Shown: positions 25,644 to 50,024, counted from the stretch's first letter. The stretch: 64,000 nucleotides of DNA from Candidatus Woesearchaeota archaeon (GCA_018303505.1 JAGVYA010000020.1:97-64096); one strand, 5' to 3'. The notes: generated by a model not told the origin, from the sequence alone. Translations and numbers: made by a program.

Positions 25644-26099
25644 ATGCCAGAACTTAAAATCTTGAATAATAAAGAAATAAAAGAAATTTATGGATTTATA
25701 GAAAAGCAATGGGGTGCAAAAGTAAAGCTTGATTATGGTTTTTTGAAGAACAACAAAAATCGAGTTTTTATAATTAGCAAAGATATTTCAAAAATTGACA
25801 TTTCAAAGTTAAGGTTGAATTCTGCAGGCATGTATTTTTGCGAGATTGATAATAAAGGGATAAGGCTTAGCATTGAAGGCGCTCAAATTATTGGGCAAAA
25901 AGCAGCAAAAAATACAGTTGAGCTGAATGAAGAAGAAACGAAGAAATGGTTTAAGGGAGAAGATCTGGAAAAAGAATGCAAAGATTGCAGCGGGTTTGTT
26001 ATATTAAAGCATAATAAAGATTTTCTTGGCAATGGGAAATATACAAATGGCAGGATTTTGAATTATGTGGGGAAGACGAGGAGGGTGAATTTACTTTAG
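25644..26099 (+). CDS. NIP7-like PUA-domain protein
   Basis: Track ORF trimmed to MPELKILNNKEIKEIYGFIEKQWG.... C-terminal ..GFVILKHNKDFLGNGKYTNGRILNYVGK resembles a PUA fold. Confidence 0.5.
   Translation: MPELKILNNKEIKEIYGFIEKQWGAKVKLDYGFLKNNKNRVFIISKDISKIDISKLRLNSAGMYFCEIDNKGIRLSIEGAQIIGQKAAKNTVELNEEETKKWFKGEDLEKECKDCSGFVILKHNKDFLGNGKYTNGRILNYVGKTRRVNLL
26055..26090 (+). repeat. direct repeat copy 1 (36 bp, perfect)
   Basis: attttgaattatgtggggaagacgaggagggtgaat, identical to 26968-27003. Lies inside the 3' end of 25644..26099. Confidence 0.95.
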
Positions 26100-26567
26100 T
26101 ATCTCCTGTTTGTTTATTATGATTACTTTATCTTTGGTTTCGATATCATTAATTATTTGTTTAAGCTGATTCTTATTTACTAATTCCTTTAAAGAATATA
26201 AAATTGTTTCTAAGTCAACTACATTAATGTTTAAATTCTCTGCTAACTGAATGGCTTTATTATCGTTTGTTACCAATGTGAAATTTCTCATTTTGCATAT
26301 TGCAATGCATTCTACCTCCCCTCTCCCGAGATTTTTTTGATAATAAATATTTTTCACCAAATTAGACTCTTGTAAGCTTAGCTTTGGATGTTGGAAAATT
26401 TTTGATGCAAGAACATCTTTCACTAATGGTAATTTTGAACGTGCCAAGTCTGATATGACGGCAGGTGGGATTAAGAGATAACTCTTGCCGAATAATCTTT
26501 TTAGCAAGCTTAATTTTTTAATTTTCGCAAATGTGCTGAGCACATCTGCATCAAACACGAAAGCCAT
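26091..26567 (-). CDS. PIN-domain ribonuclease (VapC-like toxin)
   Basis: FVFDADVLSTF, GEVECIA, LVTNDNKA acidic residues in PIN order. Paired with the upstream antitoxin-like gene. Confidence 0.75.
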   Translation of the reverse strand: MAFVFDADVLSTFAKIKKLSLLKRLFGKSYLLIPPAVISDLARSKLPLVKDVLASKIFQHPKLSLQESNLVKNIYYQKNLGRGEVECIAICKMRNFTLVTNDNKAIQLAENLNINVVDLETILYSLKELVNKNQLKQIINDIETKDKVIIINKQEILK

Positions 26568-26571
26568 TAAT

Positions 26572-26901
26572 TCACCTTCTAGCTTTCCTTATTATTTCAA
26601 GCCCTTTTTTTACTCGTTTGTTAGAAGACTTAATAACGCGCACAATGCCTCTTTCAGCCAACGCATCCTTGAAATCTGCAGTATTCATCTCTGCAATCTC
26701 TGAGGCTTTGCCCAAGCTGACTTCTCCTGAGTTATATAGTTCAACTGCAGCAGTTATTTTTAAATGTGGCTTATGCTCAAACAGACATCTTAATGCATCT
26801 TTTGCAACATCTGATTTGCTTGAGTAAAATCCAGCCCTGACTAATGCGGAGATCTCATCACTAATTATTTCAGGTAAACTAAAAGTCTCGGCTTGCGGCA
26901 T
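26572..26901 (-). CDS. UPF0175-type antitoxin-like protein
   Basis: C-terminal GEVSLGKASEIAEMNTADFKDALAERGI pattern. 4-nt gap to the PIN gene. Confidence 0.65.
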   Translation of the reverse strand: MPQAETFSLPEIISDEISALVRAGFYSSKSDVAKDALRCLFEHKPHLKITAAVELYNSGEVSLGKASEIAEMNTADFKDALAERGIVRVIKSSNKRVKKGLEIIRKARR

Positions 26902-26967
26902 TTTTTCTCATATTTATTAATATCTGTTAATATATATATTTTTCTGTTTTTTGAGATTTAATTAAGA

Positions 26968-27003
26968 ATTTTGAATTATGTGGGGAAGACGAGGAGGGTG
27001 AAT
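26968..27003 (+). repeat. direct repeat copy 2 (36 bp, perfect)
   Basis: Identical to 26055-26090. Followed by att aat gtt taa, which would terminate the same reading frame. Confidence 0.95.
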
Positions 27004-27016
27004 ATTAATGTTTAAT

Positions 27017-27877
27017 TCACTTTTGGTATAATCCATGAGTAGACAACCTATAATCGTTACTAGAATGCACCCAATAAGCAATGATGCCTTCTCCAATCTT
27101 ATCCAACTTAGTTTGTGGTTGGACTCCCGTTAATAACAAACCCCACTTCCTCAATAGACCAACATACCGTTCTAATGCATCTAGCAAATTGCCATAATTA
27201 TCACTCCCTCTGAACCCGCCCATACCTTTCATTATGAGTGAAAAAATTCCATTTTTTACCATAACCTCCATTGCAGGTTTAACTTTTGTTGCATCAGCTT
27301 TAACAAAGTAGAGTGTTCTTTGCGTGTTTCCTACTTTATATCTTACTTTTGTAGTATAATTTCTATTATCAACTCTGTCAATATCGGCACCATATTTTTG
27401 AAGTCTTTGTACTACGCCATCAATAGTCTCTCGGCTTATTTGTGGATCAATCATTATATGTTTCGTTGCGTTGAATAGGACTCCATGCTCCACATCATCA
27501 AAAGAACCTAAATCGACACTAGGATATTTTTTTCTCTCTGGATTTTCTGCAGATTTTTTTATTATTTCGTATGCAAAAGGTTTATCCATAATACCTTGGA
27601 TTGCATTAGCTAAAAATACTCTTTCCTCTTGACTCAAATTTATGTCATCAAGAAGTCCCACTAATTCAGATGAGTCCCTTCCATTTACGACAAACTTGAC
27701 ACCTTCGTCAGTTAGTCTTGGAGTAGTCTCAGGGCTTGAAATAAATTGATGACTATACAACTCATCTAAAATAAGTCTAACAGTTGGATTACTAGTTGAA
27801 ATTGGTTTTCCAGCCCAAAGGTCCCTAATTACTTCTTCTTTTAATAGATGGTGTTCCATCAAAATCGCCCATATCAT
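27017..27877 (-). CDS. hypothetical protein, third gene of the RelA/SpoT-like cassette
   Basis: Track ORF, 286 aa. N-terminal VRLILDELYSHQFISSPETTPRLTDEGVKFV looks winged-helix-like. The rest is unrecognised. Confidence 0.6.
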   Translation of the reverse strand: MIWAILMEHHLLKEEVIRDLWAGKPISTSNPTVRLILDELYSHQFISSPETTPRLTDEGVKFVVNGRDSSELVGLLDDINLSQEERVFLANAIQGIMDKPFAYEIIKKSAENPERKKYPSVDLGSFDDVEHGVLFNATKHIMIDPQISRETIDGVVQRLQKYGADIDRVDNRNYTTKVRYKVGNTQRTLYFVKADATKVKPAMEVMVKNGIFSLIMKGMGGFRGSDNYGNLLDALERYVGLLRKWGLLLTGVQPQTKLDKIGEGIIAYWVHSSNDYRLSTHGLYQK

Positions 27878-27946
27878 TACTATGAATTACCCTATTTAAA
27901 TCTTTCGTTTTTTGACTACTTAGAAGTGGTTATTATTAGTGTCAAA

Positions 27947-28981
27947 TTACCGCTTGGCTTGTGTATATATCTTTGATAGTGGACTCGGCTTCAATCCAAA
28001 CAATTCCCTTAGCTGTATATTAAGCTCAAACCACGATTGTCCAGTTTTTTCTCTTGCCTCCTTGATAACTTGTCTGTATACCCTATGTGCGGCATCTGGG
28101 TGTAATTTATTAAAATCATACTTTTCTGTATCAACTATTTGAATCTCATGAAATAAGCCACAGTAGCTTATGACCAAATTAATGGCCTTATAACCGTTAT
28201 TTTTAGGATGTTGGATATAATCCTTTACACTAACAATAGATATATCCTTTCTCCCCTTTATATATCCTAAAACTATATAGCACATATTTTGGTTCATTGT
28301 AATAAATCTTATGCCACTCAAATCTTTCACTTCATCATTTTCGCTAGGTATTTTATCAACTCTGTAAATTTTATCGATACCAAAGTTTCTATCTGTTATT
28401 TTATCCGCTAAATCGCCTGGTGATTTTATTCTACCAGTGATTCCGATAACATCTCTTTTTTTTCTTTTAAGTTGTTCTTCAATTTCACCAAAAGAAGAAG
28501 ATCTTGAACTTATAATCTTCCTTACAAAATTATCTGGAGCATATATCAAAAAGGATTTTTCCACTTCTACTGGAACATTATGTGCTTTGCATGTTTGTAA
28601 TTCACTATGTCTTGCAGTAATCATATTAGTTAATTCTTCATCTGTTGATTGCAAAGCAATAATATCTGGTCTCGTTAGATCTTCAACTACAACTATAGGG
28701 TTATTGTGGAATCTGTACGCACATAAGCCTTCTAGCGTCATAGCTGGCTTAACAGGAAGGCCATGCCAATATCTACCTAAGAAAGTGTGAACTAAAGCGT
28801 GAGTCCTTGCTTCTGCATTTCTCATTTCCTCTTTGTATGCTTGTTGCACTAACTCTATTTCGTCTGATGGCAAAGAAATTCTTTTATGTTCTTTGTAAGC
28901 ACGTTTTATTTTTCTGACTGATTCTTTTATATCCTCATTATCAAAAATAGCTTCCAAATGTGATAAACTTTCAACTGTCAT
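27947..28981 (-). CDS. RelA/SpoT-family nucleotide pyrophosphokinase (small alarmone synthetase-like) with N-terminal extension
   Basis: Ordered motifs ITGRIKSPGDLADKI, DLSGIRFIT, DYIQHPKNNGYKAINLVI, FHEIQIVD...HPDAAHRVYR. Confidence 0.75.
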   Translation of the reverse strand: MTVESLSHLEAIFDNEDIKESVRKIKRAYKEHKRISLPSDEIELVQQAYKEEMRNAEARTHALVHTFLGRYWHGLPVKPAMTLEGLCAYRFHNNPIVVVEDLTRPDIIALQSTDEELTNMITARHSELQTCKAHNVPVEVEKSFLIYAPDNFVRKIISSRSSSFGEIEEQLKRKKRDVIGITGRIKSPGDLADKITDRNFGIDKIYRVDKIPSENDEVKDLSGIRFITMNQNMCYIVLGYIKGRKDISIVSVKDYIQHPKNNGYKAINLVISYCGLFHEIQIVDTEKYDFNKLHPDAAHRVYRQVIKEAREKTGQSWFELNIQLRELFGLKPSPLSKIYTQAKR

Positions 28982-29045
28982 TTTATTATGAGAAATTAGT
29001 TATTATTTAATATTTTTTGGATTTTTTGTTAAAAACCTCTTTAAG

Positions 29046-30758
29046 CTATTGGCTACCATTTGGTCTTCTGTAGTCTGTAATCATCTCTGAATGGTCTGGC
29101 AATAGCCTCATCAAAAGATTAAAGTCGTCAAGAGTGGAAAAAATATGTTTTCTAGGATCATAATCGCCAGGACTATTTAGTGTGGCAAGTTGACGAGAGT
29201 CCCTTCTTGCATGTTTGTCATACACCATAGTAAATTTTGGAAGCAGTATTTCTAAATGTCTTGCATCTTTGTAGCTTTCTATTCTTTCTTTTGTATCTCT
29301 ATCTAATGCGTCAATACTTTCTCTACCGCCTGCATCTCTTGCGAGCCAAGTCCCAATAAATCCAGGATCAGTTATCCTATAATAAAATGTAGTTCGTTTT
29401 TTTCTTTCAATTAATTTATCAACTAGGGGTTTAATTGCTTTTATTTCTGGATCATCCTCGTATATTTTTATTGCAGATTGTGCCAACCTTAATTTGGCAT
29501 CTACTAAATCGCTTATTGCATAAACTGCAAGTCTCATTAATTGATGTGTACCTTCATTTACTTTTCCAGAGACCGTGGGTATACCATAACTATTAAAAGT
29601 TCGGTTTGCATATTGCATGCCTGAAACCCCTGCTACCGAGTTTGCCACACGCATTGCAGCACTCATTGATTTTCCGTCTTTTTCTAGGCTTCCAAACCTT
29701 TTTGTAAACTCTTCTCCAATAACATAACTAATTTCATTACCATCTACAGAACCAGTAATTATCCTTCCATTTTTAGAGGCCATTCTTAATTGTTGCATTA
29801 CCTCGGCAGGAATAGGATCAGTTTCATCACTATTACTTATCAAATCAGCACTTTTTACAACAAATCTTCTAAAAGTTTGATCAAGCCCCTCACCACCATC
29901 TCTTGAGAAATCATGTCTTAGGGAGTAGGCATAAGAATTTTTATCTGTAAATCTTGTAGCATCCATTACGATTCTTACAGCTTTAGTGTGATATTTCCTG
30001 TAATCTTCTCTTTCAGCTCCTTTCACACCTTGGGGAATGTAACCATTTAATCTCCTTTCGAGTTCTTCAGCCTTTTTTCTTCTTGCTTCGGTTAATAACC
30101 CAGAATATTTTTTTAAATTAGCCCCATCATTCCTAAAAAGAGCATCTAGCCAATTATTTTCAAACCCTTTTATTTCTGGATCTTCTTCAATTTTGTCATG
30201 CAGTAAGGCTGCAATAAAAATTATATAATCAAGGGGCACACCAGCCTTTAATGATATTTTAAGCGCTTCTTGTAAATCACTATAGATATGGGAACTTGCA
30301 GGCAATGCGCTGTGCCTTCTTTGCCCAATTGCTATAAAATCTTTTTGTACATCTTCTTCAACTCTAGCCGCTATTTCTTTTAGCGGGTCTTTCAAATATC
30401 TGCCATATTTATCTTCAGTCTGTTTAAAATTAGGTGAATCTAAAAAACTTCCAAAAAACAAGTGCTTTTTTAGCCATTCTTCATAATCATTTCTCCTTGT
30501 GGGGCTGGGGTGTAATATTTCATTAACAAATAACTCATCGATGGTTAGAACATATCTTCCGTTAGGAGACGCATAAACATCATATCTCGGCTGTGGAGTT
30601 ACTTCTGTAGACTGTTGAATTGCTTTATCTATTTCTGGAGTTTCAACAATAACTGGTGATGGACTTTCTTGTCTAAACCACCCCAAAAATCCTACTGCCA
30701 TTGTCCCAACCTTTGTTGCTCTTTTCAAAAATTTTTCCAAATCGTCTTTCTGTGACAT
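29046..30758 (-). CDS. SpoT-type HD-domain (alarmone hydrolase-like) protein, 570 aa
   Basis: SHIYSDL...IFIAALLHDKIEEDP and VVKSADLISN resemble the H..HD..ED and KLADRLHN motifs of RelA/SpoT hydrolase domains. Large flanking regions are unrecognised. Confidence 0.7.
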   Translation of the reverse strand: MSQKDDLEKFLKRATKVGTMAVGFLGWFRQESPSPVIVETPEIDKAIQQSTEVTPQPRYDVYASPNGRYVLTIDELFVNEILHPSPTRRNDYEEWLKKHLFFGSFLDSPNFKQTEDKYGRYLKDPLKEIAARVEEDVQKDFIAIGQRRHSALPASSHIYSDLQEALKISLKAGVPLDYIIFIAALLHDKIEEDPEIKGFENNWLDALFRNDGANLKKYSGLLTEARRKKAEELERRLNGYIPQGVKGAEREDYRKYHTKAVRIVMDATRFTDKNSYAYSLRHDFSRDGGEGLDQTFRRFVVKSADLISNSDETDPIPAEVMQQLRMASKNGRIITGSVDGNEISYVIGEEFTKRFGSLEKDGKSMSAAMRVANSVAGVSGMQYANRTFNSYGIPTVSGKVNEGTHQLMRLAVYAISDLVDAKLRLAQSAIKIYEDDPEIKAIKPLVDKLIERKKRTTFYYRITDPGFIGTWLARDAGGRESIDALDRDTKERIESYKDARHLEILLPKFTMVYDKHARRDSRQLATLNSPGDYDPRKHIFSTLDDFNLLMRLLPDHSEMITDYRRPNGSQ

Positions 30759-30946
30759 TTTCTTTTAATCTTCTCCAATATTAACATTCATTCCGTCCTC
30801 TATTTATCAACCTCTTTTCCTTCTCGAGAACCAAAAGTTTACAGCTCCCCTAAGTAATCCATAATGATTTATTCATTTAAAAAGTTATCTGTTTTTGGTG
30901 ATAAAAATTCTATATAAAATATATAGAAAATGTTTTATTTTCTACT

Positions 30947-31360
30947 TTATTCTTCTTTATTTTCAATGATAACACCTATTCTATTCTTTTTTTCTTTTAA
31001 AAAACTAATTAAATGCCTATCCAAGTCAAATGCGGCCTTATTTGCCCTTATTGCAAATGTCCTTTCAGAAACGAAATTAGTCTTTCTAATTACGAGTTCC
31101 TTACTGCTGTTGAAGCTTGGATTAAGTTCTGCACTAACTGTTTCCTGATATTTTTTATCCTCTGATGCAATTTTTATTATTATTCGATTATTTTTAGAAT
31201 CTTTAATGAATTCCTTTATTTTGATTAAATCAAAATCAGCTTTAACTGCAACAATGCAGTCTCCTTTCAAGCTGACTTCTTTGTCTTTTGTAAATTCTAG
31301 TGTTGTTTTATGAGTTGCTAATATGTTTGGATGACCATAAGCATTGAATTTGTAAATCAT
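30947..31360 (-). CDS. DUF371-family protein
   Basis: AYGHPNILATHKTTLEFTKD...GDCIVAV pattern. Confidence 0.55.
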   Translation of the reverse strand: MIYKFNAYGHPNILATHKTTLEFTKDKEVSLKGDCIVAVKADFDLIKIKEFIKDSKNNRIIIKIASEDKKYQETVSAELNPSFNSSKELVIRKTNFVSERTFAIRANKAAFDLDRHLISFLKEKKNRIGVIIENKEE

Positions 31361-31381
31361 TTTATTTGTTTAAATATAATA

Positions 31382-31473: not shown

Positions 31474-31585
31474 TTTTTATTTTTTGGTTAAAGTTATCCT
31501 TCAGTTAATTTAGTTTGTGCTTCTTGCCCTAGACAATTAGGCACTCACAATAATAAAATTTAATTAAATAAAAATAAATCAAAAA

Positions 31586-32675: not shown

Positions 32676-32719
32676 CATTTTTAGAAATCCTTATATACTA
32701 ATCCATTTTAATTTCTATA

Positions 32720-41542: not shown

Positions 41543-42463
41543 ATGTTATTCTCTAAACTTAAGCATAAAGATGAAGAGCTTCTTCCGCCTCCACCTCCGT
41601 TTCCTAATCTGGAGTTTGAAGAACAAGCTGAGGAAAAGCCCAAGTTCTTTGACGAAATCATAAAGCCAAAAAAAGCTGAAACTTTTCCTGAAGAAAAGGA
41701 GTTTAGCGAATTAGTAAAAAAAGTGGAAGAATTAAAGCCAAAAAAAATGTTAAGCAAAAGGGAAAAAACAATTGCAAAAAAACGATTCAAAAAAATAACT
41801 CAACAAAAAAAAATAAAGGTAAAGAAAGCGCAACCAATAAAAATAATTCAAGTTAAACCAATAAAAGAAAAGAAAATAACATTAAAAAAACCTTCAATAA
41901 AACAAGCTAAAAAACCTTTACCAAAAATAAAACAAAAATTACCAATTAAAAAAACAAAAACACCAAAAATTGAACTGCCTGAGTTGAAAGAAGATTTTCT
42001 TAAGGATATTGACTTTGGGCTTCCAAAAAAACTTGAAAAATCTAAAGAAGGAACTGGATTTCCGGAAACATTAGAAGATTTTGATATTGAGGGGGAATAT
42101 AAACAAAAACCTAAAGAAATTTTAGAGGCTGAAGAGGAGATAAAAAGCGCTATTGAAAATATAAAAAAGCAGGAAAATAAATCTATATTAAAGAGGTTAT
42201 TTTCAAAGAAGTTAAAAGAAGAAGCGCCAGAAGAGCGTCTAATGCTTGAACTTCCAGCAGTAGATAATCTTTCCAAAATACAAAATAAAATAAATGAAGC
42301 AAGGCAGGCATTGATGAAATTTGACTTGAAGACGGCAAAGAGGAACTACATTGAGGCAATGAGGCTCTACAACAATATAAGCCCGGAAGATAAAGCCAAA
42401 GTCTACCATGACATAAAAGAACTTTATTTTGAGAGAAAAAGCGCAGAGGAACTAAAGGTTTAG
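41543..42463 (+). CDS. Lys/Pro-rich low-complexity protein with helical C-terminal domain
   Basis: N-terminal ELLPPPPPFPNLEFEE. C-terminal ..AKRNYIEAMRLYNNISPEDKAKVYHDIKELY. Paralogous to 42838..43773. Confidence 0.6.
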   Translation: MLFSKLKHKDEELLPPPPPFPNLEFEEQAEEKPKFFDEIIKPKKAETFPEEKEFSELVKKVEELKPKKMLSKREKTIAKKRFKKITQQKKIKVKKAQPIKIIQVKPIKEKKITLKKPSIKQAKKPLPKIKQKLPIKKTKTPKIELPELKEDFLKDIDFGLPKKLEKSKEGTGFPETLEDFDIEGEYKQKPKEILEAEEEIKSAIENIKKQENKSILKRLFSKKLKEEAPEERLMLELPAVDNLSKIQNKINEARQALMKFDLKTAKRNYIEAMRLYNNISPEDKAKVYHDIKELYFERKSAEELKV

Positions 42464-42499
42464 CTGATTTCTATCTTCTCCCCCACTTTCAACCTTAAC
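42453..42499. repeat. direct repeat copy 1 (47 bp, 3 mismatches to 43804-43850)
   Basis: taaaggtttagctgatttctatcttctcccccactttcaaccttaac. Confidence 0.9.
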
Positions 42500-42837
42500 T
42501 AGACCAAATCGTAAATAATTGCTCGCAATTAATCGGCGAGTTTATTGTATTTTACTCTTTTAATTATGAATTAATAATTACGAATCAGTGCACTTAATCT
42601 TTTTTTTGGCTTTAATCTTTCCATTTCCTTCAGCAGGTCTTCAAATTCCTCATCTTTATCCTTGGCTTTTTTTGGCTTTGCGTCAGTAGAAATATCCGGC
42701 TCTTTTTCCTCCTCAAGCTCCATGCTTGGAAAAGCCGGCGAAATAACCTTAAATATAAAGAATAAATTTTATGATGTTGTGAGGGGAATATACAAAAAGT
42801 ACAGGCAACGGCTCGCCTATGCTGATTAAACAATAAT

Positions 42838-43773
42838 TCATTTCAAACTGTTGTACAAATCCATTAATTCACCATAAACTTCCTTTTTCTCGTGGTATTC
42901 CATGCTCATATAAAGATTTCTCACCTCTAAGTATAGCTTCTTGGCTTTTGCAGCATTGCCCTTGCTAATGGATTCTTTTGCCTCATGCAAAGCTTTGTAG
43001 CATTTGCCAAAAGCTTTGCTTTTTCCTGTGAGCTTGATCTTAGGCTTTTCCTCTTTTACCTTTTCTTTTGCCTTGACAACCTCTTTTTCAAAGAATTTCT
43101 TTTCTGGAGATATTTTTTCTTCTTTTATTGGTGTTGATTTTTCCTCTTTTTTCAGCAGCCTCTCAAATATGCCTGGCTTTTTCTTCGAAATTTCGAATTT
43201 ACCCTTTTCCATCTCCTTGAAAAGCCCCAAGCTTTTGATTGCCTCCTCTAATTCCTCTGCTTCGCTGGCTGGCTTTGATTTTTTTGGCTTTTCTTCTACC
43301 TCTTCAGGGACAGCTTCTATTTTTTCTGAAATTGGCTCTTGAGCCTCTCTTTTGCCGAACAGTCTTCCTAAAATAGTAGGCTTCTCCTCAAGGATTGGTT
43401 CTTCTTCCTTTAACTCCTCTTTTATCTCTTCCCGCTCATGCTCTTTCTTCCTGAACAAGCGCTCAAACAAGCCGGCTTTCTTTTCTTCCTGCTTCTTTTC
43501 TTCTATTTCTTTTTGTTTTGCTAATGACTCTTGCTTAATCTTTTCTTCTTTCAGCCTTAGCCTCTCCTCCAAAGCCTTTCTTTTTTCCTCTTCTTTTTCT
43601 TTCCTTATTTTTTGTGCCCTTTCCTTATAGCCAGACACCAGATTTTTTAAGAAAGTCAAACTAAACTTTGACAGCTCTGCTTTATTCTGAGCTTTTATTT
43701 GAGCCTGCCTTTGCTTTTCCAACTCCTTTTGTGCCCTTTCCTGTTCTTTTGCCCTTCTCTCATCATCCTTCAT
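42838..43773 (-). CDS. Lys/Glu-rich low-complexity protein, paralogue of 41543..42463
   Basis: C-terminal ..AKAKKLYLEVRNLYMSMEYHEKKEVYGELMDLY aligns with the C-terminus of the neighbour. Confidence 0.6.
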   Translation of the reverse strand: MKDDERRAKEQERAQKELEKQRQAQIKAQNKAELSKFSLTFLKNLVSGYKERAQKIRKEKEEEKRKALEERLRLKEEKIKQESLAKQKEIEEKKQEEKKAGLFERLFRKKEHEREEIKEELKEEEPILEEKPTILGRLFGKREAQEPISEKIEAVPEEVEEKPKKSKPASEAEELEEAIKSLGLFKEMEKGKFEISKKKPGIFERLLKKEEKSTPIKEEKISPEKKFFEKEVVKAKEKVKEEKPKIKLTGKSKAFGKCYKALHEAKESISKGNAAKAKKLYLEVRNLYMSMEYHEKKEVYGELMDLYNSLK

Positions 43774-43803
43774 CTTCTTTTCCTCTTCAGATTTTCTTTT
43801 TGG

Positions 43804-43850
43804 TAAAGGTTTAGCTTATTTCTATCTTATCCCCCACTTTCAATCTTAAC
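43804..43850. repeat. direct repeat copy 2 (47 bp)
   Basis: taaaggtttagcttatttctatcttatcccccactttcaatcttaac; contains the last 12 codons and stop of 43811..44536. Confidence 0.9.
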
Positions 43851-44536
43851 CTTTTAGATGCTTTGGAATTTTTTACAGAGATTTCAAGCGTGCCAGAGCT
43901 TCCTTTGATGAGAAACAGCTTATTTAAAGGTGCTGATTCATAAGTTTTGTAAAGGCTTAATTTTTGATTAAAATGTCCTGTTTTTACTTTGTATGATTTT
44001 TTATTTAACGAACTCAAGTTTGTTATTATATTGCTGAAATTATCAATCCTCACAACTTCGCCTTCTCTGCCTTCAATATGAAAATCAAGCTTTGTTTTTA
44101 TTGTTGTTTGCTTGCCTAGTTTATCAATTTTAACTCCTTTTTCAAGCATTGCTGCTGCTTTTGCAAACACATCTCTTCCGTGAAAAGTCATCGATGTGTT
44201 TTTTACAGGCAATTTGACTGCAGCAACAAATCCATCTTCAAAAGCTGCCTTGTGCATCAACCCATTATCAGGTCCCACAAAAAAATAATTCCTGGTTTTG
44301 ACGGCCAGGCACTGTCTTTTGCTTCCAACTCCGGGATCAACAACGCATAAAAATATGGTATTTTTTGGAAAATACCTGTAGTTCTTATATAATATCCATG
44401 CGCCTTCCTTTATGTTATGGTGAGTCACAAAATTAGACAAATCAACTATTTTTGTGTTCTTTTTAATAGAATAAATAACCCCCTTCATCACACCCAGATA
44501 CTCAGAATGCCCAAAGTCCGTCAATATCACAATCAT
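43811..44536 (-). CDS. SAM hydroxide adenosyltransferase family protein (DUF62)
   Basis: MIVILTDFGHSEYLGVMKGVIYSI... N-terminus. Confidence 0.7.
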   Translation of the reverse strand: MIVILTDFGHSEYLGVMKGVIYSIKKNTKIVDLSNFVTHHNIKEGAWILYKNYRYFPKNTIFLCVVDPGVGSKRQCLAVKTRNYFFVGPDNGLMHKAAFEDGFVAAVKLPVKNTSMTFHGRDVFAKAAAMLEKGVKIDKLGKQTTIKTKLDFHIEGREGEVVRIDNFSNIITNLSSLNKKSYKVKTGHFNQKLSLYKTYESAPLNKLFLIKGSSGTLEISVKNSKASKRLRLKVGDKIEIS

Positions 44537-44617
44537 ACAGCAAAGTTATTATACATTTTATTTAAAGTTTTGCGATTTTGCATAAATTTAATAAATTAGC
44601 TTGAAATCTCAAAGTCT

Positions 44618-45241
44618 ATGAAAAAAGGAATTTTTATTGTTGTTGACGGCATTGACGGCTCTGGCAAAAGCGAGATAGTCAAGATGCTGCACAACTACCT
44701 TTTTTCAAAAAGCAAGAAATACGGGATTTTGACAACAAGAGAGCCAACAAATGGAATATATGGAAAGCAAATAAGACAAATGCTAAGAAAAGAGAATGAT
44801 CCGGAAAGCAGCAGCAAAAAATTGATGAGCCTATTTATAAAAGACAGGGCAGAACACTTAAAAAATACAATAGAGCTGTTTTTAAAAAAATCTAATAAGC
44901 ACGAATTAAACATTGTGCTTTGCGACCGCTATTATTATTCGACAATTGCTTTCCAGAGCGCGCAGGGATTAAACATTAAAGATATGATTGAAAAAAATAA
45001 GATATTCAGAGAGCCTGATATAGCATTTATCCTTGATGTTGAGCCTTACTTGGCGCTAGAAAGAATAGAATACAGGAAAAAAGAAAAGTTCGAGCAGCTT
45101 GAATTCATGAAAAAGATAAGAAAGAATTTCCTTAGATTGCCAAAATTATTGAGCGATAATATAAGAATTATAGACTCTTCAAAGCCTTTAAAGAAGGTTT
45201 TTGAAAGTGTAAGGAAAGAAGTGGATAGAATATTAAATTGA
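44618..45241 (+). CDS. tmk: thymidylate kinase
   Basis: GIFIVVDGIDGSGKS P-loop, CDRYYYST, lid region. Confidence 0.88.
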   Translation: MKKGIFIVVDGIDGSGKSEIVKMLHNYLFSKSKKYGILTTREPTNGIYGKQIRQMLRKENDPESSSKKLMSLFIKDRAEHLKNTIELFLKKSNKHELNIVLCDRYYYSTIAFQSAQGLNIKDMIEKNKIFREPDIAFILDVEPYLALERIEYRKKEKFEQLEFMKKIRKNFLRLPKLLSDNIRIIDSSKPLKKVFESVRKEVDRILN

Positions 45242-45885
45242 TTATTTTGAATATTTTTTTCTTACCACAGCATTATCAATAGTCATTATAAAATTTTTAT
45301 AAAATATTCTTAAAATATCGTCAACATTATGGGTTTGCCAACCATTTTGAATCTCTATTCTTCTTATATTTCCAACAACACCTGCATCCCTCATCTCATA
45401 TTCTGCCATTAACTCTTCTGGGAACATCACTTTTCTGGGAACGCTAAAGTAAGCATGACTGCGTTCCGGGAAAATTTCAATATAATGATCCCCGCCAGGC
45501 CCATTCGGACTTATTTTTTCTTTTCCTATGTACAGTCCACCTTTGATTGGAAATGGACTTACATATTTCCCAGAATCTACTTGGCGAATTTGACCTAGCT
45601 TTATTTTTGAGTTTGAGGGTCTCGCTCAAAAGATTCAAGTTCAAACTGAATACCAACTATCTTGCCTTTTACTGCTTCTAAATCTTTGACTGTATCTTCA
45701 AGTGCTTCGCCAAGAACAGAAACTGCAAGCTCTACATCAATTCCTTCTTCTCTCATTGAAGGGTGGTAAGGTGGTAGCCAAATTCTTTCAAAATCATAGA
45801 ATTTCTTGCCATCTCTAGTCTTTGCTTCAACAATCTCGACAGGAAAATGCTCCCTCTGAAACAATAATCGAGAAATATCTGTCAT
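45242..45885 (-). pseudogene. hypothetical protein split by a frameshift in a 5-nt homopolymer
   Basis: Track ORF 45601..45885 ends ..DPQTQK-stop at caaaaataa. Adding one A continues K-I-K-LGQIRQVDSGKYVSPFPIKGGLYIGKEKISPNGPGGDHYIEIFPERSHAYFSVPRKV into track ORF 45242..45430 with no intervening stop. Confidence 0.55.
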
Positions 45886-45893
45886 TTTGAAAA

Positions 45894-46289
45894 TTAGGGC
45901 GTTCTCACATTGCTGTCGCTTTTGTAATAAGGCTCTGAAATGTCTTCAACTGGTTCTTTTTCTTCAATTTTCTCCATAACAGCTTGCTTCTGCTCTTTTC
46001 TGAATCTAAGCTCTCCGCCTTTAAAAATCCATGCTGAAATTACTATCGCCAAGCCTATTATTACAGCAGGCCAGAATAAGTTATATTGGACAATTGTTTT
46101 CTGTATTGTTGGATAAGAATGGCATGAAAAATCAGAGCCGCAATATGACTCTGAGCCGCAGTCTCTATTAACCTTGCATTCTCTTTGGCTAACATTAATA
46201 AGCCAGCCTAGAAAAAATACTATAACTATGATTACTAGTAAAGTAGTAGCTGCTTCTGACTTCTTATATAGCCACCCCATAACAAGCAA
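45894..46289 (-). CDS. membrane protein with extracytoplasmic Cys-rich loop
   Basis: Two hydrophobic segments flanking RECKVNRDCGSESYCGSDFSCH. Confidence 0.5.
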   Translation of the reverse strand: MLVMGWLYKKSEAATTLLVIIVIVFFLGWLINVSQRECKVNRDCGSESYCGSDFSCHSYPTIQKTIVQYNLFWPAVIIGLAIVISAWIFKGGELRFRKEQKQAVMEKIEEKEPVEDISEPYYKSDSNVRTP

Positions 46290-46346
46290 GTTATATAGAT
46301 GTATTTTTAAATCTTTTCTTAATGACTACTTGAAAGTAAGTAAGAA

Positions 46347-46472
46347 CTAGTCAACTAGTTGTTGCTCTTCTTGATTAATTGGTTTAGCTTCATCAGCAGC
46401 AAATTCCGCCAGTTTCGTGTTTTTCTGTACTGTCTTGAACCTTATCGGCTTGCTTGTATCCTTGCCCATCAT
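46347..46472 (-). CDS. possible small protein (41 aa)
   Basis: Own translation: MMGKDTSKPIRFKTVQKNTKLAEFAADEAKPINQEEQQLVD. Preceded by GAGGTGGG. Directly downstream of dut. Confidence 0.3.
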   Translation of the reverse strand: MMGKDTSKPIRFKTVQKNTKLAEFAADEAKPINQEEQQLVD

Positions 46473-46482
46473 CCCACCTCTT

Positions 46483-46917
46483 TTACTCTAAACCAGTGCT
46501 TCCGAACCCCTGCTCGTTTCTTGTAGTTTCTTCAAGCTTGTCAATTTCCTCAAAAACAGCTTCCTCTACTTTTGTAAACACCATCTGGCCAATTTTCTTG
46601 CCTTTTTCTATTTTGTATGGCTTGTCGCTGAAATTAATCATTGGTATTTTTATCTCTCCCCTATAGGATGAGTCAATTGTGCCTATGCTGTTGGCATGGC
46701 TTATGCCATGCTCCAAAGCCAAGCCGCTTTTTGGCCTTATTTGAGCTTCATAACCATAAGGAATTTCTATCTTAATGCCAGTTCCAATCAATTTTCTTTC
46801 CATTGGCTTTAGCAGGTAATCCTCAGCAGCATACAAATCAACTCCTGAGTCGCCTTTGTGGGAATAGAAAGGTGTTTTGACATCAGCAACTTTTTTGATT
46901 TTAACCTTTAAGTCCAT
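46483..46917 (-). CDS. dut: dUTP diphosphatase (trimeric type)
   Basis: GDSGVDLYA, IRPKSGLA, IDSSYRGEI, GFGSTG motifs. Confidence 0.88.
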   Translation of the reverse strand: MDLKVKIKKVADVKTPFYSHKGDSGVDLYAAEDYLLKPMERKLIGTGIKIEIPYGYEAQIRPKSGLALEHGISHANSIGTIDSSYRGEIKIPMINFSDKPYKIEKGKKIGQMVFTKVEEAVFEEIDKLEETTRNEQGFGSTGLE

Positions 46918-47022
46918 TTTAATCACAAAGAAAACTCAATTTTTAACAGCTTACTTATATTTAAATAATTCGCAATTTAAAAATATAGTTTTATTAAGTT
47001 ATGTTGATTAGTTTATATTGCT

Positions 47023-47526
47023 TTATTCTTTTCTAAAAGAAAGTATGGATGAAAGATTGTGCTCAAGCACCTTGCCATTGGATGCATCTATTTTAATATT
47101 TAAAGTGTTGAAAGCTTCTGTTATATATGTTATGTTCCATATATTGCCTAGGTTTGGCATGTTTTGCAGTATTGCAATAGTCTTTATGCTTTTGTCCTTT
47201 GGAAAGTTTTTTTGCTGGAATTCATCTGCTTTTCCAATAGCACTGTCAAATGTTATCTTCACCTTGTCCAGCTGTATTTCATTCACTTTCATTCCTTCCT
47301 TTTTGAAGATTTCTTCTTCTGGCCTTATCTTAATGTTGTCTCCTGCTATGACAAAAGTGGTTATTTTGTCTTTTTTGGAGTTATAGAAGCCAAACTGCCA
47401 GTCATTTGAGCCCATTTCCTGCGGTATTTTAAAGGCATAAGAGAAATATGTATTTTTGTTTTTTTTATGCCATACCTTGAAATCTGGGCTTTCCTCAAGC
47501 TTTTTTAACGCAGGCTTTAAGTCCAT
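47023..47526 (-). CDS. hypothetical protein
   Basis: Track ORF trimmed to MDLKPALKKLEESPDF, since the upstream part overlaps the taw1 start region. Confidence 0.5.
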   Translation of the reverse strand: MDLKPALKKLEESPDFKVWHKKNKNTYFSYAFKIPQEMGSNDWQFGFYNSKKDKITTFVIAGDNIKIRPEEEIFKKEGMKVNEIQLDKVKITFDSAIGKADEFQQKNFPKDKSIKTIAILQNMPNLGNIWNITYITEAFNTLNIKIDASNGKVLEHNLSSILSFRKE

Positions 47527-47578
47527 AAGAAGTTTGAAAACCTCAAAATTTATATAGATTTGTATTTTATTTATAGGC

Positions 47579-48529
47579 ATGATAACAGCAGATGTAAAGT
47601 TAATGTTAAAAAAGCAGCAATATGAAGTAGTTGGCAACCATACAAGAGTCAAGACATGCCACTGGACTAAAAGCGACTTGAGAGGAGAAGGTGGCTGTTA
47701 TAAAAACAAGTTTTACGGCATTAACAGCCATCAATGCGTCCAGATGACTCCTACATTTACTTGCAACAATGCCTGTGTCTTTTGCTGGCGTGATTTAAGG
47801 TATCATACACAGCCTGCTATGGAAGGAAGCATAGATGAGCCAGAAGAAATTGTTGAAGGCACAATAGAGGCCCAAAAAAAACTGCTTTCTGGATTTGGAG
47901 GAAATGAAAAAACGAGCAAAGAGAAATTCGAAAAGTCAATGCATCCGCAGCATGTTGCCATATCATTGGATGGAGAGCCAACTTTGTATCCAAAGCTGAC
48001 AGAGTTAATTAGGGCATATAAAAAAAGGAATTTCTCGACATTTGTTGTGAGCAATGGCTTGTTGCCTGAAAGAATTGAGAAATTGCTTGAAGAGCCGCCA
48101 ACGCAGATTTACATCAGCGTAGACGCTCCAAATGAAGAACTTTTTAATATCATTGACCGACCTATTATTAAGAATGCGTGGCAAGGCTTGATGAAAACTT
48201 TCGGTATACTGCCAAAATTAAGAGAAAGAATGAGAACTGTTTTACGATTTACTTTAATCAAAGACCTTAACATGATTTATCCTGAGCAGTGGGCTGAAAT
48301 CATAAAGCTCAGCAACCCGATGTTTGTTGAAGCCAAAGCATACATGTGGGTGGGCATGTCAAGAGAAAGACTGCTGCAGGAAAATATGCCAAGCCATGAA
48401 GAGGTAAAGCGGTTTGCTCTTGAGATAGCAAAGCACGCAGATTACAAGCTGATAGACGAGCATGAGCCTTCAAGAGTTGTTTTATTAATGAAAGGGGATT
48501 TTGAAGGAAGGGTTATGAAGTTTGAGTGA
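47579..48529 (+). CDS. taw1: 4-demethylwyosine synthase (radical SAM, Tyw1/Taw1)
   Basis: VKTCHWTKSDLRGEGGCYKNKFYGI...CNNACVFCWR. Confidence 0.88.
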   Translation: MITADVKLMLKKQQYEVVGNHTRVKTCHWTKSDLRGEGGCYKNKFYGINSHQCVQMTPTFTCNNACVFCWRDLRYHTQPAMEGSIDEPEEIVEGTIEAQKKLLSGFGGNEKTSKEKFEKSMHPQHVAISLDGEPTLYPKLTELIRAYKKRNFSTFVVSNGLLPERIEKLLEEPPTQIYISVDAPNEELFNIIDRPIIKNAWQGLMKTFGILPKLRERMRTVLRFTLIKDLNMIYPEQWAEIIKLSNPMFVEAKAYMWVGMSRERLLQENMPSHEEVKRFALEIAKHADYKLIDEHEPSRVVLLMKGDFEGRVMKFE

Positions 48530-48667
48530 AGATTAATTGTAGTTGTTTCAATTAAAGCGAATTTTGAACCTGACAACTCACCTTAATTACAAGATTGTCA
48601 GTTCATATTTACGGGGGTTGAGCTTTGGGAAGAAATATTTAAATACCTAAATCCATATTTTTTAAAA

Positions 48668-48889
48668 ATGAATAAAAGTGATAAGCCAGTTAGGATTATC
48701 GTTAATCATGTATACCACAATCCTCCTAATCCTAACGAAGGTTCAGGAGCTCCATTATTTTTTGGAATAATTATTTTTATTATATCTGTGCTTGGAGTTT
48801 TTGCAACACCTATTGAGGTGTGGAATTTCATTGCTCTTGGTGTGGCTATTCTATTAGGTAAATGGTTGTATGGTCAGTTCTTTACTTAA
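48668..48889 (+). CDS. small membrane protein
   Basis: Two hydrophobic segments; track ORF. Confidence 0.4.
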   Translation: MNKSDKPVRIIVNHVYHNPPNPNEGSGAPLFFGIIIFIISVLGVFATPIEVWNFIALGVAILLGKWLYGQFFT

Positions 48890-48970
48890 ACAACTGGTAA
48901 AATGTTTAATGTAAGTACAAGCTGGATTAAGATAAAGTTTAATATTATGATATTTAGGTTTAAATGTGAG

Positions 48971-49144
48971 ATGAATAAGGAAGTAAAAAAATATTTTGGA
49001 GGGGGATTGTTAATTCTCGCTTTAGGTATTTCTATTATATTGGTGTCATTAATCCCATATTATAGATTTTTTAGAATAGTGGGTTATTCAGTTATTTTTT
49101 TAAGTTTAGTTCCTTTTGGTATTGGAATTTGGTTATACAAGTAA
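48971..49144 (+). CDS. small membrane protein
   Basis: Track ORF trimmed to MNKEVKKYFGG; two hydrophobic segments. Confidence 0.4.
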   Translation: MNKEVKKYFGGGLLILALGISIILVSLIPYYRFFRIVGYSVIFLSLVPFGIGIWLYK

Positions 49145-49250
49145 TTAAAAAAGATAGGATATACTAGATAGGCATTAAAATTATTGTATATACGTTGACT
49201 TAATTGTTTTTTGTAATTATGGTGTTTTATAAATACATTCTCACACAATA

Positions 49251-49279
49251 AAATACGTAAGCCCCCAACTTTTCAGTCT
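49251..49279. repeat. direct repeat copy 1 (29 bp, 4 mismatches to 49996-50024)
   Basis: aaatacgtaagcccccaacttttcagtct. Confidence 0.75.
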
Positions 49280-49448
49280 TTCGAACATCTACTCTGCTTC
49301 GCAGTAATTCATGCATGCTGATAATCTTAAAAAAATAACGAAAAACGGCTGTCCCGCCGTCCCAAAGTTTGCTTATTTCATTCGTAAAAAATCAAAACAT
49401 TTATATATCTATGATATATATCAGTAATATATCTCGCTGGTGACTTTC

Positions 49449-49733
49449 ATGAATTTCACTTACAAGGGAAAGCCAATACTTCCAACCAAAACGGCGTTAA
49501 ATGAATTAAGCGATATTAATGTAAATTTGTATGAAGTCCCAGAAATTTTGGAAAAAGGCTTTGAAGTCAGAAAAAGAGCGAAGAACATTACTGAAAGAGG
49601 CATTCAAAGGGGAAAGAAAGTGATAAATGTTGTAGTGGTTGATTTGGGAGACTACTACAAGTTAATTCATGCGGGCGAATTTACATTAAGTAAAAAATTC
49701 AAAAAATTAATGAGGTATAAAAATGGAATTTGA
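49449..49733 (+). CDS. small toxin-like protein (DUF4258-like, weak)
   Basis: MNFTYKGKPILPTKTALNEL...ITERGIQRGKKVINVVVVD. Confidence 0.4.
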   Translation: MNFTYKGKPILPTKTALNELSDINVNLYEVPEILEKGFEVRKRAKNITERGIQRGKKVINVVVVDLGDYYKLIHAGEFTLSKKFKKLMRYKNGI

Positions 49734-49818
49734 AAATCTAAAGCTGAAATGCGAATGCGGCGGAAAGATGGAAAAGATAAGAACAGAATGGAAAGGAATA
49801 GAAGTAAGAGGATGGTAG
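49723..49818 (+). CDS. 31-codon zinc-ribbon ORF (YgiT/MqsA-like finger)
   Basis: Own translation: MEFENLKLKCECGGKMEKIRTEWKGIEVRGW-stop. Start overlaps the upstream stop. Confidence 0.35.
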   Translation: MEFENLKLKCECGGKMEKIRTEWKGIEVRGW

Positions 49819-49985
49819 AAATAGAAAGGGCTAGAAAGAAAAATCTCCTTACTGTAAAATTAAGGAAGGTAGGAAAAAGCAATGTTGTTACAGTGCCGCA
49901 GCCAATAATAGAAGCTGAAAACCTAAAAGAAGGGCAAAAATTGGAATGGAAGATAGAAGCTGGTAGATTAGTTTTGAGCCCGTAA
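49812..49985 (+). CDS. AbrB/SpoVT-like antitoxin-type DNA-binding protein
   Basis: MVEIERARKKNLLTVKLRKVGKSNVVTVPQPIIEAENLKEGQKLEWKIE. Internal Met of track ORF 49749..49985. Overlaps the previous ORF by ATGGTAG. Confidence 0.55.
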   Translation: MVEIERARKKNLLTVKLRKVGKSNVVTVPQPIIEAENLKEGQKLEWKIEAGRLVLSP

Positions 49986-49995
49986 ATATATAACG

Positions 49996-50024
49996 AAATA
50001 CGCAAGTCCTCAACTTTTCAGCCT
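49996..50024. repeat. direct repeat copy 2 (29 bp)
   Basis: aaatacgcaagtcctcaacttttcagcct; abuts and overlaps the stop codon of 50023..50676. Confidence 0.75.

Follow-up and report, generated by a model that had tools for sequence, protein, structure and literature searches.

Small accessory cassettes are inserted beside conserved genes in the genome of a Candidatus Woesearchaeota archaeon (GCA_018303505.1), and at two loci, L1 and L2, the direct repeats around the insert are true duplications of resident gene ends. These loci are recombinase-free insertions and belong descriptively to the class 'insertion with long target duplication'. On balance we favour host recombination with a relative's donor DNA that carried its own gene end, requiring no dedicated enzyme, as their origin. 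The window analysed here is a stretch of 64,000 nucleotides (JAGVYA010000020.1:97-64096) from a MAG (G000; 77 contigs, 88% complete) of a tiny groundwater archaeon with a 1.3-Mb genome that is 91% coding. ORFs were taken from a simple ORF caller, and the relatives compared are non-independent samples.

A search of positions 25000-51000 for direct pairs with at least 25 of 29 identical positions at a spacing of 200-3000 nt revealed exactly three, L1 (26052-26090 and 26965-27003; 38/39 identical), L2 (42453-42499 and 43804-43850; 44/47) and L3 (49251-49279 and 49996-50024; 25/29), all at the places given in the preliminary description. These pairs exceed chance, and 30 block shuffles of the same region gave zero pairs of at least 25/29, with a maximum of 23/29. 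The repeats of L1 (39 bp) and L2 (47 bp) are longer than 30 bp, the length criterion of Furuta et al. 2010, and that of L3 measures only 29 bp.

The resident target at L1 is a PUA-domain gene (25644-26099, plus strand; Pfam Methyltranf_PUA, E=3.6e-9). Its last codons lie inside the gene-attached first repeat copy (26052-26090, plus strand), which ends 9 nt short of the end of the stop codon and is followed by a new tail of three codons, TTACTTTAG (LL*). PUA orthologs in the genus relatives share the same conserved terminal block, followed by variable tails. The cassette comprises, on the minus strand, a PIN-like (DUF3368-type) toxin gene (26091-26567; an ORF with a UPF0175 antitoxin partner), the stop of which overlaps the PUA gene tail, and a UPF0175/RHH antitoxin gene (26572-26901; Pfam UPF0175, E=4.6e-12); a paralogous cassette toxin matches DUF3368. 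The promoter/operator region (26902-26964) is conserved up to about position 26951 with the cassette copies of G009 and G020. The second repeat copy (26965-27003) together with an old-looking tail, ATTAATGTTTAA (INV*), forms a stranded PUA terminus (26965-27015, plus strand). An empty site with a single repeat copy was present in eight of the nine genus relatives examined. Homologs of the L1 cassette, G020:C89 and G009:C25, both lie at contig ends, and no donor arrangement with this cassette beside a PUA gene was found among them.

L2 lies between two convergent genes, a K/E-rich gene of 306 aa (41543-42463, plus strand) and the resident target, a gene for SAM hydroxide adenosyltransferase (SAM_HAT; 43811-44536, minus strand; Pfam SAM_HAT_N, E=6.5e-49, and SAM_HAT_C, E=1.3e-16), which are convergent in all relatives. 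The repeat spans their overlapping stop regions. Copy 1 (42453-42499) holds the working end of the 306-aa gene (its last 11 nt) and the stranded last 13 codons of SAM_HAT, and copy 2 (43804-43850) is the working 3' end of SAM_HAT. The insert of 1304 bp (42500-43803, minus strand) is absent from all ten genus relatives examined, each of which has an empty site with one repeat copy. It encodes a 311-aa K/E-rich paralog (42838-43773) and a 50-aa K/E-rich ORF (42571-42723), but no toxin-antitoxin pair, and a Pfam scan of the insert detected neither a Pfam domain nor a recombinase. Its best homologs are only 48-54% identical and are C-termini of much longer ORFs; the homolog search revealed no source of the insert.

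L3 is different: it represents a second class, in which copies of a noncoding element flank the cassette. Its first repeat copy (49251-49279) overlaps the start of element E (49261-49374), a conserved noncoding sequence that is 84-88% identical in relatives and has no Rfam match. The same cassette family also has element E beside it in G052, G004 and G016, at other genomic positions and with lengths of 115-170 nt. The reading of the 29-mer as a copy of a resident gene terminus was rejected; it is the start of element E, which travels with the cassette family. The second copy (49996-50024) is a truncated remnant of the start of E at the stop codon of a metallophosphoesterase gene (50023-50676, minus strand; Pfam Metallophos, E=7.3e-25), which it overlaps by 2 nt. 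Relatives in which the spacer is short lack this repeat downstream of the metallophosphoesterase stop, and no empty site with a single repeat copy was found at L3. The cassette itself (49440-49985, plus strand) consists of a 97-aa ORF (49440-49733), a 31-aa Zn-ribbon remnant (49723-49818) and a MazE/AbrB part (49812-49985). In relatives, the latter two form one gene of 105-116 aa; about 55 nt are missing from G000 at 49815/49816, and its antitoxin gene is broken. A single pattern of gene-end duplication, as first proposed for all three loci, therefore holds for L1 and L2 and not for L3, and the grading of repeat identity that had been taken for event age mixes two kinds of repeat, because the L3 repeat is the start of element E and not a gene terminus.

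The interval between the wyosine gene and the metallophosphoesterase gene ranges from 62 bp to 6 kb among relatives, and G000 and its closest relative also differ in the region to the right of L1 (27017-30789). Such variation would suit cassettes that are remnants of larger proviruses or plasmids, from which the integrase was deleted and attL and attR were left. We regard this origin as very improbable: the inserts are compact (0.7-1.4 kb), each a complete toxin-antitoxin operon with promoter, neither an integrase nor viral remnants were found in them, and several genomes contain the same small cassette as one unit.

Genome-wide, direct repeats outnumber inverted ones by 51 to 3 in the raw set and by 28 to 1 among locus-specific repeats, which bears out the recurrence of the architecture claimed from the three loci. 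At least nine events duplicate the ends of genes for carB, MgtC, an M17 aminopeptidase, a Cas4-like nuclease, 5S rRNA and an EndoIII-like protein; in the EndoIII-like gene, the 5' end is duplicated. Segments inside genes, 5' ends and an RNA gene (5S rRNA) are also used as sites. The repeats are 34 to about 225 bp long (143 nt at carB; 225 nt at EndoIII), with cores of 34-143 bp, and the inserts measure 0.7-2.7 kb. Stop codons are overlapped by 9 of the 28 direct repeats, against 4.4 expected; the association with gene ends stands to this extent, but the enrichment specific to stop codons is weak and the bias is towards gene edges generally. The repeats of L1, L2 and five further loci (C3, C8, C29, C61, C27a) have two genomic copies only; uniqueness fails at C70 and C73, flanked by the multi-copy element F, and at L3 with element E. 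The cassettes are not fixed, as seen from the empty sites at L1, at L2 and at the MgtC locus, where seven genomes carry the site with one repeat copy. A search of metagenome contigs for the exact empty-site pattern gave no match. Other genomes have events at these gene ends too: PUA in G009, M17 in G017 and G011, and carB in G049. That all this reflects chance repeats or artefacts of MAG assembly, as the 77 contigs and the short, only 86% identical L3 repeat might suggest, is already close to refuted: the shuffles never reach 25/29, imperfect repeats cannot come from a de Bruijn graph, the architecture recurs in the independently assembled genomes G009, G017, G011 and G049, and direct repeats prevail over inverted ones.

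By their domains, the cargo genes are mostly predicted type II toxin-antitoxin pairs. The L1 pair, UPF0175 and PIN-like, is small, adjacent and co-oriented; other loci carry VapB/PIN (carB), RHH+DUF3368, TumE+HVO_A0114, PIN, PIN_2, MNT/HEPN-like and DUF2283+PBECR2 genes. Cargo of another kind includes the K/E-rich protein, an AAA_14/DUF4143 ATPase and a LAGLIDADG gene. No restriction-modification genes were found among the cassette proteins examined. In Pfam scans of the cassette proteins, neither the cassettes nor their surroundings yielded a mobility gene, be it a recombinase, an integrase, a transposase or another kind, in agreement with the preliminary description. The wider search proposed there, for recombinases and casposase-like genes in the genome, yielded only three Phage_integrase-family genes, which are Xer-like paralogs (one of them split) and none of which adjoins the class A cassettes. 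The same search found no resolvase, and no match to Cas1 (PF01867), the casposase family, in the 88% complete genome; a casposon was therefore rejected. No enriched k-mer or motif was detected among 15 repeat cores (best CCCTC, 4/15, p=8e-4 uncorrected), and no inverted termini were seen on reading the L1-L3 sequence. DNA transposons, IS elements and MITEs were rejected on the lack of inverted termini, the variable duplications of 34-225 bp and the single locus-specific inverted repeat in the genome.

Integrative elements are known to insert at the 3' ends of tRNA or protein genes, where their att sites lie, as do phage 21 and e14 in icd and archaeal elements with SSV-type and pTN3-type integrases. 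The cassettes resemble them in supplying a replacement gene end that keeps the gene intact and in having flanking repeats with a nearly identical core and a diverged extension. A tyrosine or serine recombinase encoded elsewhere, acting in trans on cassette circles at gene-end att sites, would account for this classical att architecture and for the reuse of gene ends across genomes, and the three Phage_integrase-family genes could be its source. Such a dedicated integrase is nevertheless improbable, because no cassette contains or adjoins a recombinase and no motif is common to the repeats, which comprise more than nine unrelated sequences. Unlike att sites of integrative elements, the repeats have no common core, their core lengths vary and the cargo is tiny (0.7-1.4 kb); moreover, events at one site differ in their boundaries, the sites include 5' ends, segments inside genes and 5S rRNA, the candidate recombinases are Xer-like, and the same cassette occupies the same site without repeats in other genomes. 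What survives of the att-site comparison is its logic of incoming DNA with its own gene end, which fits the codon-periodic differences described below. As a whole, the original observation is partly confirmed and its interpretation partly supported.

Mismatches between the copies at nine repeats fall on codon positions 1, 2 and 3 in 9, 5 and 29 cases (29/43 at the third position, p=1e-5), and 28 are synonymous against 15 non-synonymous. An integrase-borne element with a selected copy of the gene end would also give such codon-periodic differences. At carB, the stranded end is nearer to the relatives' carB than the working copy is in most of the about two dozen genomes that match both queries (87 vs 85% identity in G013, 82 vs 77% in G006). 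The stranded 5' fragment of the EndoIII-like gene has an intact N-terminus and is of allelic type II, whereas the working gene is of type I; their shared core of 84 bp is 96% identical, compared with 65-88% among relatives. Several repeat pairs behave as two alleles, not as a copy and a decaying duplicate. Codon-periodic mismatches, stranded copies that match relatives as well as or better than the working ones, and the different allele therefore favour host recombination with donor DNA.

Taken literally, 'insertion with long target duplication' means duplication in place, in which two staggered cuts 30-150 bp apart, or the joining of the cassette ends to two sister chromosomes, would be followed by ligation and gap fill, so that the copies start identical. 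We consider this unlikely. The pooled third-position excess is larger than our estimate, not a computed value, for one selected and one neutral copy, the stranded carB copy is no more diverged from orthologs than the working one, and the stranded EndoIII fragment is a different allele. In favour of duplication in place, L1 and L2 have boundaries that are sharp on both sides, with no flanking diverged homology. Their 1 and 3 differing positions fit it equally well and are too few to separate it from the donor-allele route. At the PUA site of G009, all six differences are changes from G/C to A/T and four of the six are non-synonymous, the pattern that neutral decay would give if the copy had been made in place. 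Variable repeat lengths also agree with those of restriction-modification units (PMC2853133). Independent events at one gene end, however, share the stop-proximal boundary, and the other boundary varies (PUA in G000 and G009; M17 copies of 38 and 57 nt); identical stop-proximal boundaries would require a site-specific cut if the copies were made in place. The shared boundary is the point at which orthologous tails diverge.

For host recombination with donor DNA, we infer the following order of events and enzymes. DNA would enter from a related genome in which the cassette already adjoins the orthologous gene, and would bring the end of that gene with it. The conserved gene end would serve as a homology anchor for host recombination or repair, and end joining would attach the non-homologous far end of the cassette within the resident gene end or slightly past it; one-ended homologous repair with end joining or, equivalently, a single crossover with a circularised fragment could produce this outcome. 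The gene would then run on into the imported end and the cassette; the old end of the resident gene would remain stranded beyond the cassette and form the second 'repeat'. The bias towards gene edges could arise because, with 91% of the genome coding, an event would be retained only if both neighbouring genes stayed intact, and the toxin-antitoxin pair may then oppose its loss by recombination between the repeats. Donor-type arrangements exist: after the M17 stop, a DUF4258/DUF2283 cassette occurs with no detectable repeat in G008, G002 and G022 and with a degenerate repeat in G017 and G011, and the M17 site is empty in G041, G019, G015 and G023. To our knowledge, end joining is poorly documented in these archaea, which counts against this route.

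One homologous anchor combined with one illegitimate joint, without a dedicated recombinase, is also the hallmark of homology-facilitated illegitimate recombination, reportedly found in naturally transformable bacteria by de Vries and Wackernagel in 2002 and by Prudhomme et al. in the same year. We know of no description of it in archaea. The events described for that process usually delete recipient DNA, whereas here a stranded duplicate is left. Archaeal integrons are said to have been described by Ghaly et al. in 2022. Like integron cassettes and CALINs, the units studied here are promoter-poor small cassettes, often toxin-antitoxin pairs, between repeated sites, and arrays are possible, such as the two cassettes at the M17 gene end. 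An integron cassette array was nevertheless rejected, since the repeats duplicate the coding gene end of their own locus and are not palindromic attC sites, no integrase is adjacent and no IntI was found.

The closest known kind is the 'insertion with long target duplication' of bacterial restriction-modification gene complexes (Nobusato et al. 2000, Gene 259:99; Furuta, Abe and Kobayashi 2010, PMC2853133; reviewed by Mruk and Kobayashi 2014, PMC3874152). Both comprise a small 'addiction' unit without a mobility gene, flanked by long direct repeats of variable length (>30 bp) that are found nowhere else in the genome and are present singly at a relative's empty site. The published repeats also overlap gene 3' ends, by 2-15 bp (PMC2853133), and the inserts of 0.7-2.7 kb seen here lie within the size limit of that screen (<20 kb), in which no archaeal case survived. 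The present cases differ in their cargo of type II toxin-antitoxin pairs and other small genes, in their host, a DPANN archaeon with many events in one 1.3-Mb genome, and in that the copies often act as two gene-end alleles, not as an in-place duplicate. The restriction-modification papers proposed double-strand breakage by the restriction enzyme; the allele-like copies suggest a mechanism that these papers left open. We tentatively raise the possibility that DPANN toxin-antitoxin cassettes, and perhaps long-target-duplication insertions generally, are enzyme-free mobile units, each living at a given conserved gene end, spreading between related genomes on homologous recombination of that end and displacing, not duplicating, the resident end. 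If so, the long repeats would be allele pairs and handles for later excision and re-entry.

Insertion routes other than the repeat-flanked one also exist, since only about 3 of 18 PIN genes are flanked by repeats. Most indels between G000 and its closest relative likewise occur without repeats.

An ungapped scan of positions 25000-51000 of the window at spacings of 200-3000 nt revealed exactly three direct pairs with at least 25 of 29 identical positions. The best pair in 30 block shuffles of the same region reached 23/29 and none reached 25/29, so the repeats are real. All three pairs named in the preliminary description were confirmed at their positions: locus L1 (26052-26090 and 26965-27003, 38/39 identical), L2 (42453-42499 and 43804-43850, 44/47 identical) and L3 (49251-49279 and 49996-50024, 25/29 identical). 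The window comprises bases 97-64096 of contig C1 in a 1.3 Mb genome (G000; 77 contigs, 35% G+C, 91% coding with a simple ORF caller); the archaeal marker gene aIF5B lies at 23665-25425. Gene calls throughout come from this simple caller, and the genomes, being MAGs, are not complete.

When the genome was compared with itself for repeats of 28 bp or more, with an identity of 85% or more and a spacing of 250-5000 bp, the raw counts were 51 direct and 3 inverted pairs. Removal of dispersed families and of repeats within long genes left 28 direct versus 1 inverted pair (binomial p=1e-7). A stop codon lay within 10 nt of a repeat copy in 9 of the 28 pairs, versus 4.4 expected, and simulations reached up to 11. 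Specific targeting of stop codons is therefore rejected; the association with them is a weak effect, and what the repeats really favour is the edges of genes and the spacers, whatever the polarity. The single pattern proposed for all three loci was found at L1 and L2, where the repeats are duplicated gene ends, but not at L3, where the repeat is the start of a noncoding element.

At L1, the first repeat copy lies within the final codons of a gene with a PUA domain (25644-26099; Pfam Methyltranf_PUA). It is followed by a cassette on the minus strand, which comprises a toxin gene of PIN-like type (26091-26567), an antitoxin gene of the UPF0175 family (26572-26901) and their promoter. The gene-attached copy is followed by the tail LL-stop and the second copy by an in-frame alternative, INV-stop. 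The PUA block is present as a single copy without cassette in eight of nine genus relatives examined, and these relatives are akin to one another, so that such counts overstate. The ninth relative, G009, has a duplication of this gene end as well (47 nt, 87% identical), around another cassette that comprises a 135-aa gene, aspartyl protease-like on inspection alone, and a 64-aa gene. The conserved block was present at 28 further loci in public contigs from genomes and metagenomes, with a second copy only in a G009-like contig, which argues that the site is not commonly occupied. The exact 52-nt empty-site pattern had no match in metagenome contigs. Only two homologs of the L1 cassette were found, in G020, where it adjoins metK, and in G009, and each lies at the end of a contig. 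The stretch between aIF5B and the PUA gene (25426-25660) contains a 200-nt member of a dispersed family of hairpin repeats, which has over 50 partial copies in G000 and numerous ones in every genus relative.

At L2, all ten relatives with a SAM_HAT gene have it convergent with a gene for a K/E-rich 306-aa protein; the two genes overlap at their ends, and there is a single 47-mer. In G000, 1304 bp separate two copies of the 47-mer, so that neither gene has lost its end. A K/E-rich paralog of the 306-aa protein, with 311 aa and no Pfam domain, is encoded in the insert, and this cargo is not a toxin-antitoxin pair. No close homolog was found in the genus; the best relatives, C-termini of much longer ORFs, are only 48-54% identical, which points to a source outside the sampled genus. 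The two K/E-rich proteins (41543-42463 and 42838-43773) have a common C-terminal helical domain, and the family is unannotated. In relatives, this domain terminates ORFs that exceed 1000 aa and lie a few kb away from the PUA gene.

Locus-by-locus reading defined a class, here called class A, whose repeat copies the end of a flanking gene and is unique to the locus; cargo identities were backed by Pfam. Besides L1 (39 nt) and L2 (47 nt), it includes the 3' ends of carB (143 nt, 91%; VapB/PIN cargo), of an MgtC gene (43 nt; nucleotidyltransferase and HEPN-like cargo), of an M17 aminopeptidase gene with two events (38 and 57 nt; TumE/HVO_A0114 and DUF2283) and of a Cas4-like nuclease gene (34-nt core and a diverged tail; AAA_14/DUF4143 ATPase). 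The MgtC locus has a contiguous empty site in seven relatives. The 5' end of an EndoIII-like gene is duplicated over ~225 nt around a 349-aa gene. The same gene-end duplication architecture occurs at the end of an RNA gene with homing-endonuclease-like cargo. This locus lies beyond the window (C47:142-1204). Its 5S rRNA gene (C47:142-285; Rfam score 44.6 bits) has a 27-nt insert in one loop; after it come an opposite-strand LAGLIDADG_3 gene and then a second copy of the 5S 3' end (66/69 identical), which consists of the last 64 nt of the 5S rRNA and 5 nt more.

Duplication of a target in place would leave a stranded copy beyond the cassette that should decay evenly over codon positions and drift away from its orthologs. 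The 43 mismatches in nine repeats fell on codon positions 1, 2 and 3 in the proportion 9/5/29 (chi-square p=1e-5), and 28 were synonymous versus 15 non-synonymous. Both excesses imply that the copies diverged mostly while each was within a working gene. A comparison with the carB ends of relatives showed the stranded copy to be as close as or closer than the working, gene-attached copy in most of about two dozen genomes matching both (G013, 87 vs 85%; G011, 88 vs 85%; G006, 82 vs 77%), a number inflated by the kinship of these genomes. A second carB end was also found in G049, 1.5 kb from the first. The 75-residue N-terminus encoded by the stranded EndoIII-like fragment is intact and of allelic type II, the type of G005, G008 and G022, and the working gene is of type I, as in G013, G001, G015, G052 and G020. 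Their 84-bp core beside the cassette is 96% identical, and relatives differ there by 12-35%. Throughout the genus, this HhH-GPD gene (C27:8489-10559) has two sharply distinct N-terminal types, PEYSGGPKNE and TPKYHKNINL, whose distribution does not obviously match overall relatedness. At L1 and L2, where the copies differ at only 1 and 3 sites, respectively, duplication in place fits equally well, and the PUA-site repeat of G009 looks like neutral decay.

Every insertion stage is visible among relatives at the M17 locus. It is empty in G041, G019, G015 and G023; a DUF4258/DUF2283 pair directly follows the stop codon without detectable repeat in G008, G002 and G022, and is accompanied by a degenerate second copy in G017 and G011. 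In G000, each of the three copies of the gene end is followed by an in-frame stop (KN-stop, I-stop and K-stop), and the farthest copy retains the K-stop tail found in nearly all relatives. The copies have a common stop-proximal boundary and differ in the other one (38 and 57 nt), as do the PUA events in G000 and G009. The common boundary is the point at which orthologous tails diverge, which suggests that no junction lies there.

On balance, we favour the reading that class A cassettes are insertions of DNA from a relative, comprising the cassette and the adjacent end of the orthologous gene. For the steps beyond the meeting of two alleles, we infer that incoming DNA with the cassette and the neighbouring gene end would be joined on the gene side by homologous recombination and on the other side by end joining, or that a circularised fragment would enter via a single crossover. 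The resident gene end would be left stranded beyond the cassette. In a genome that is 91% coding, selection would retain only events sparing both neighbours, and a toxin-antitoxin pair could counter loss of the cassette via the repeats.

Examination of the cassette proteins revealed no recombinase, in agreement with the preliminary description. That description also suggested a genome search for tyrosine or serine recombinases or casposase-like genes. The 88% complete genome contains three tyrosine recombinase genes of Xer-like type, including a split one; searches for resolvases and Cas1 were both negative. The split gene (C36:7193-8049) consists of an N-terminal 116-aa and a C-terminal 170-aa ORF with a 7-nt overlap, and is a frameshift or a pseudogene. 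A k-mer enrichment analysis of 15 repeat cores detected no significant common word. A dedicated trans-acting recombinase for the cassettes is therefore unlikely.

The closest described kind of event is the 'insertion with long target duplication' of restriction-modification units, known in bacteria from genome comparison, where the repeats measure 45-420 bp and in some cases overlap gene 3' ends (PMC2853133; PMC3874152). The restriction-modification screen retained no archaeal case; its authors left the mechanism open and proposed double-strand breakage by the restriction enzyme (PMC2853133). Reviews term chromosomal toxin-antitoxin modules highly mobile and name no vehicle outside plasmids, phages and transposons (PMC2654758, PMC3874152). 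In open-access text we found no description of long target duplication for toxin-antitoxin cassettes or in archaea. G000 contributes a count over a whole genome, sites used again in other species and a test for alleles: one small genome provides a dozen before-and-after views of insertion, with gene ends reused in sister species, and the codon-position pattern of copy differences is a simple sequence test between 'duplicated in place' and 'two alleles brought together by recombination'. If widely true, this would supply a mechanism for a 25-year-old descriptive category, explain how selfish cassettes invade very compact genomes and leave genes unbroken, and make stranded gene-end fragments markers of recent gene flow among uncultured archaea.

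The 29-mer of L3 is the beginning of a conserved noncoding element (E, 49261-49374). No 29-mer-like sequence follows the stop codon in relatives with a gap of 62-230 bp between the wyosine-synthesis and metallophosphoesterase genes, so the L3 repeat does not duplicate a gene end. Element E lies before the cassette in G052 and after it in G004, whose order is that of G000 circularly permuted; G016 has a remnant resembling the second repeat copy after the cassette, and G013 and G003 have the element without cassette. The three-gene cassette family occurs with ~80-90% identity in many relatives at other loci. A Zn-ribbon ORF (31 aa) and a MazE/AbrB ORF (57 aa) at 49723-49985 correspond to a single 105-116-aa gene in relatives, and the loss of ~55 nt at 49815/49816 in G000 breaks the presumed antitoxin. 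The spacer at 48530-50022, from the radical SAM gene for wyosine synthesis (47579-48529) to the metallophosphoesterase gene, is a variable hot spot of 62 bp to ~6 kb among genus relatives. Element E has modules in common with an element at 48534-48615. Both contain GTGACAATCTT and CAAAGTTCGCTTTAA; the two elements are inverted relative to each other and border a pair of genes for small membrane proteins as well as the L3 cassette; their counterparts in G003 (C44) adjoin a tyrosine recombinase gene. An Rfam scan of both elements detected no family, folding of element E no significant structure, and ARAGORN no tRNA near L3, C47, C70 or C73.

L3 belongs with loci on C70, C73, C2 and several others to a second class, in which the flanking copies are of noncoding elements, either multi-copy or conserved. 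C70, C73 and C2 were rejected as target duplications, since their flanks are copies of multi-copy elements. One of these, of ~150 nt with the core GAGGTTTTTCTCCTCGAAAATTTTG, occurs in direct orientation at C70:3635-3772, C70:5167-5300 and C73:4380-4580, flanks MNT/HEPN and other cassettes, and may belong with the hairpin repeat families of the genome.

Of 18 PIN genes, only about 3 are in repeat-flanked cassettes, as are 3 of the 4 DUF2283 genes. Approximately 17 indels between the window and the closest relative, G013, were checked for flanking repeats; among true indel boundaries only L2 was positive, one further match, in G013, was a local tandem repeat, and L1 was nested inside a larger replaced region. 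The lack of repeats at most indels and the few flanked PIN genes indicate that this is one gene-gain route among several, or that the repeats are short-lived. A 400 kb contig of G052 contained 7 direct and no inverted repeats, and the flanked inserts were not toxin-antitoxin pairs. On contig C3 of G052, a 93-bp direct repeat (99% identical) surrounds a four-gene block at 377299-380746, and a 51-bp repeat (96%) surrounds a 413-aa lipoprotein-like gene at 149641-151294.
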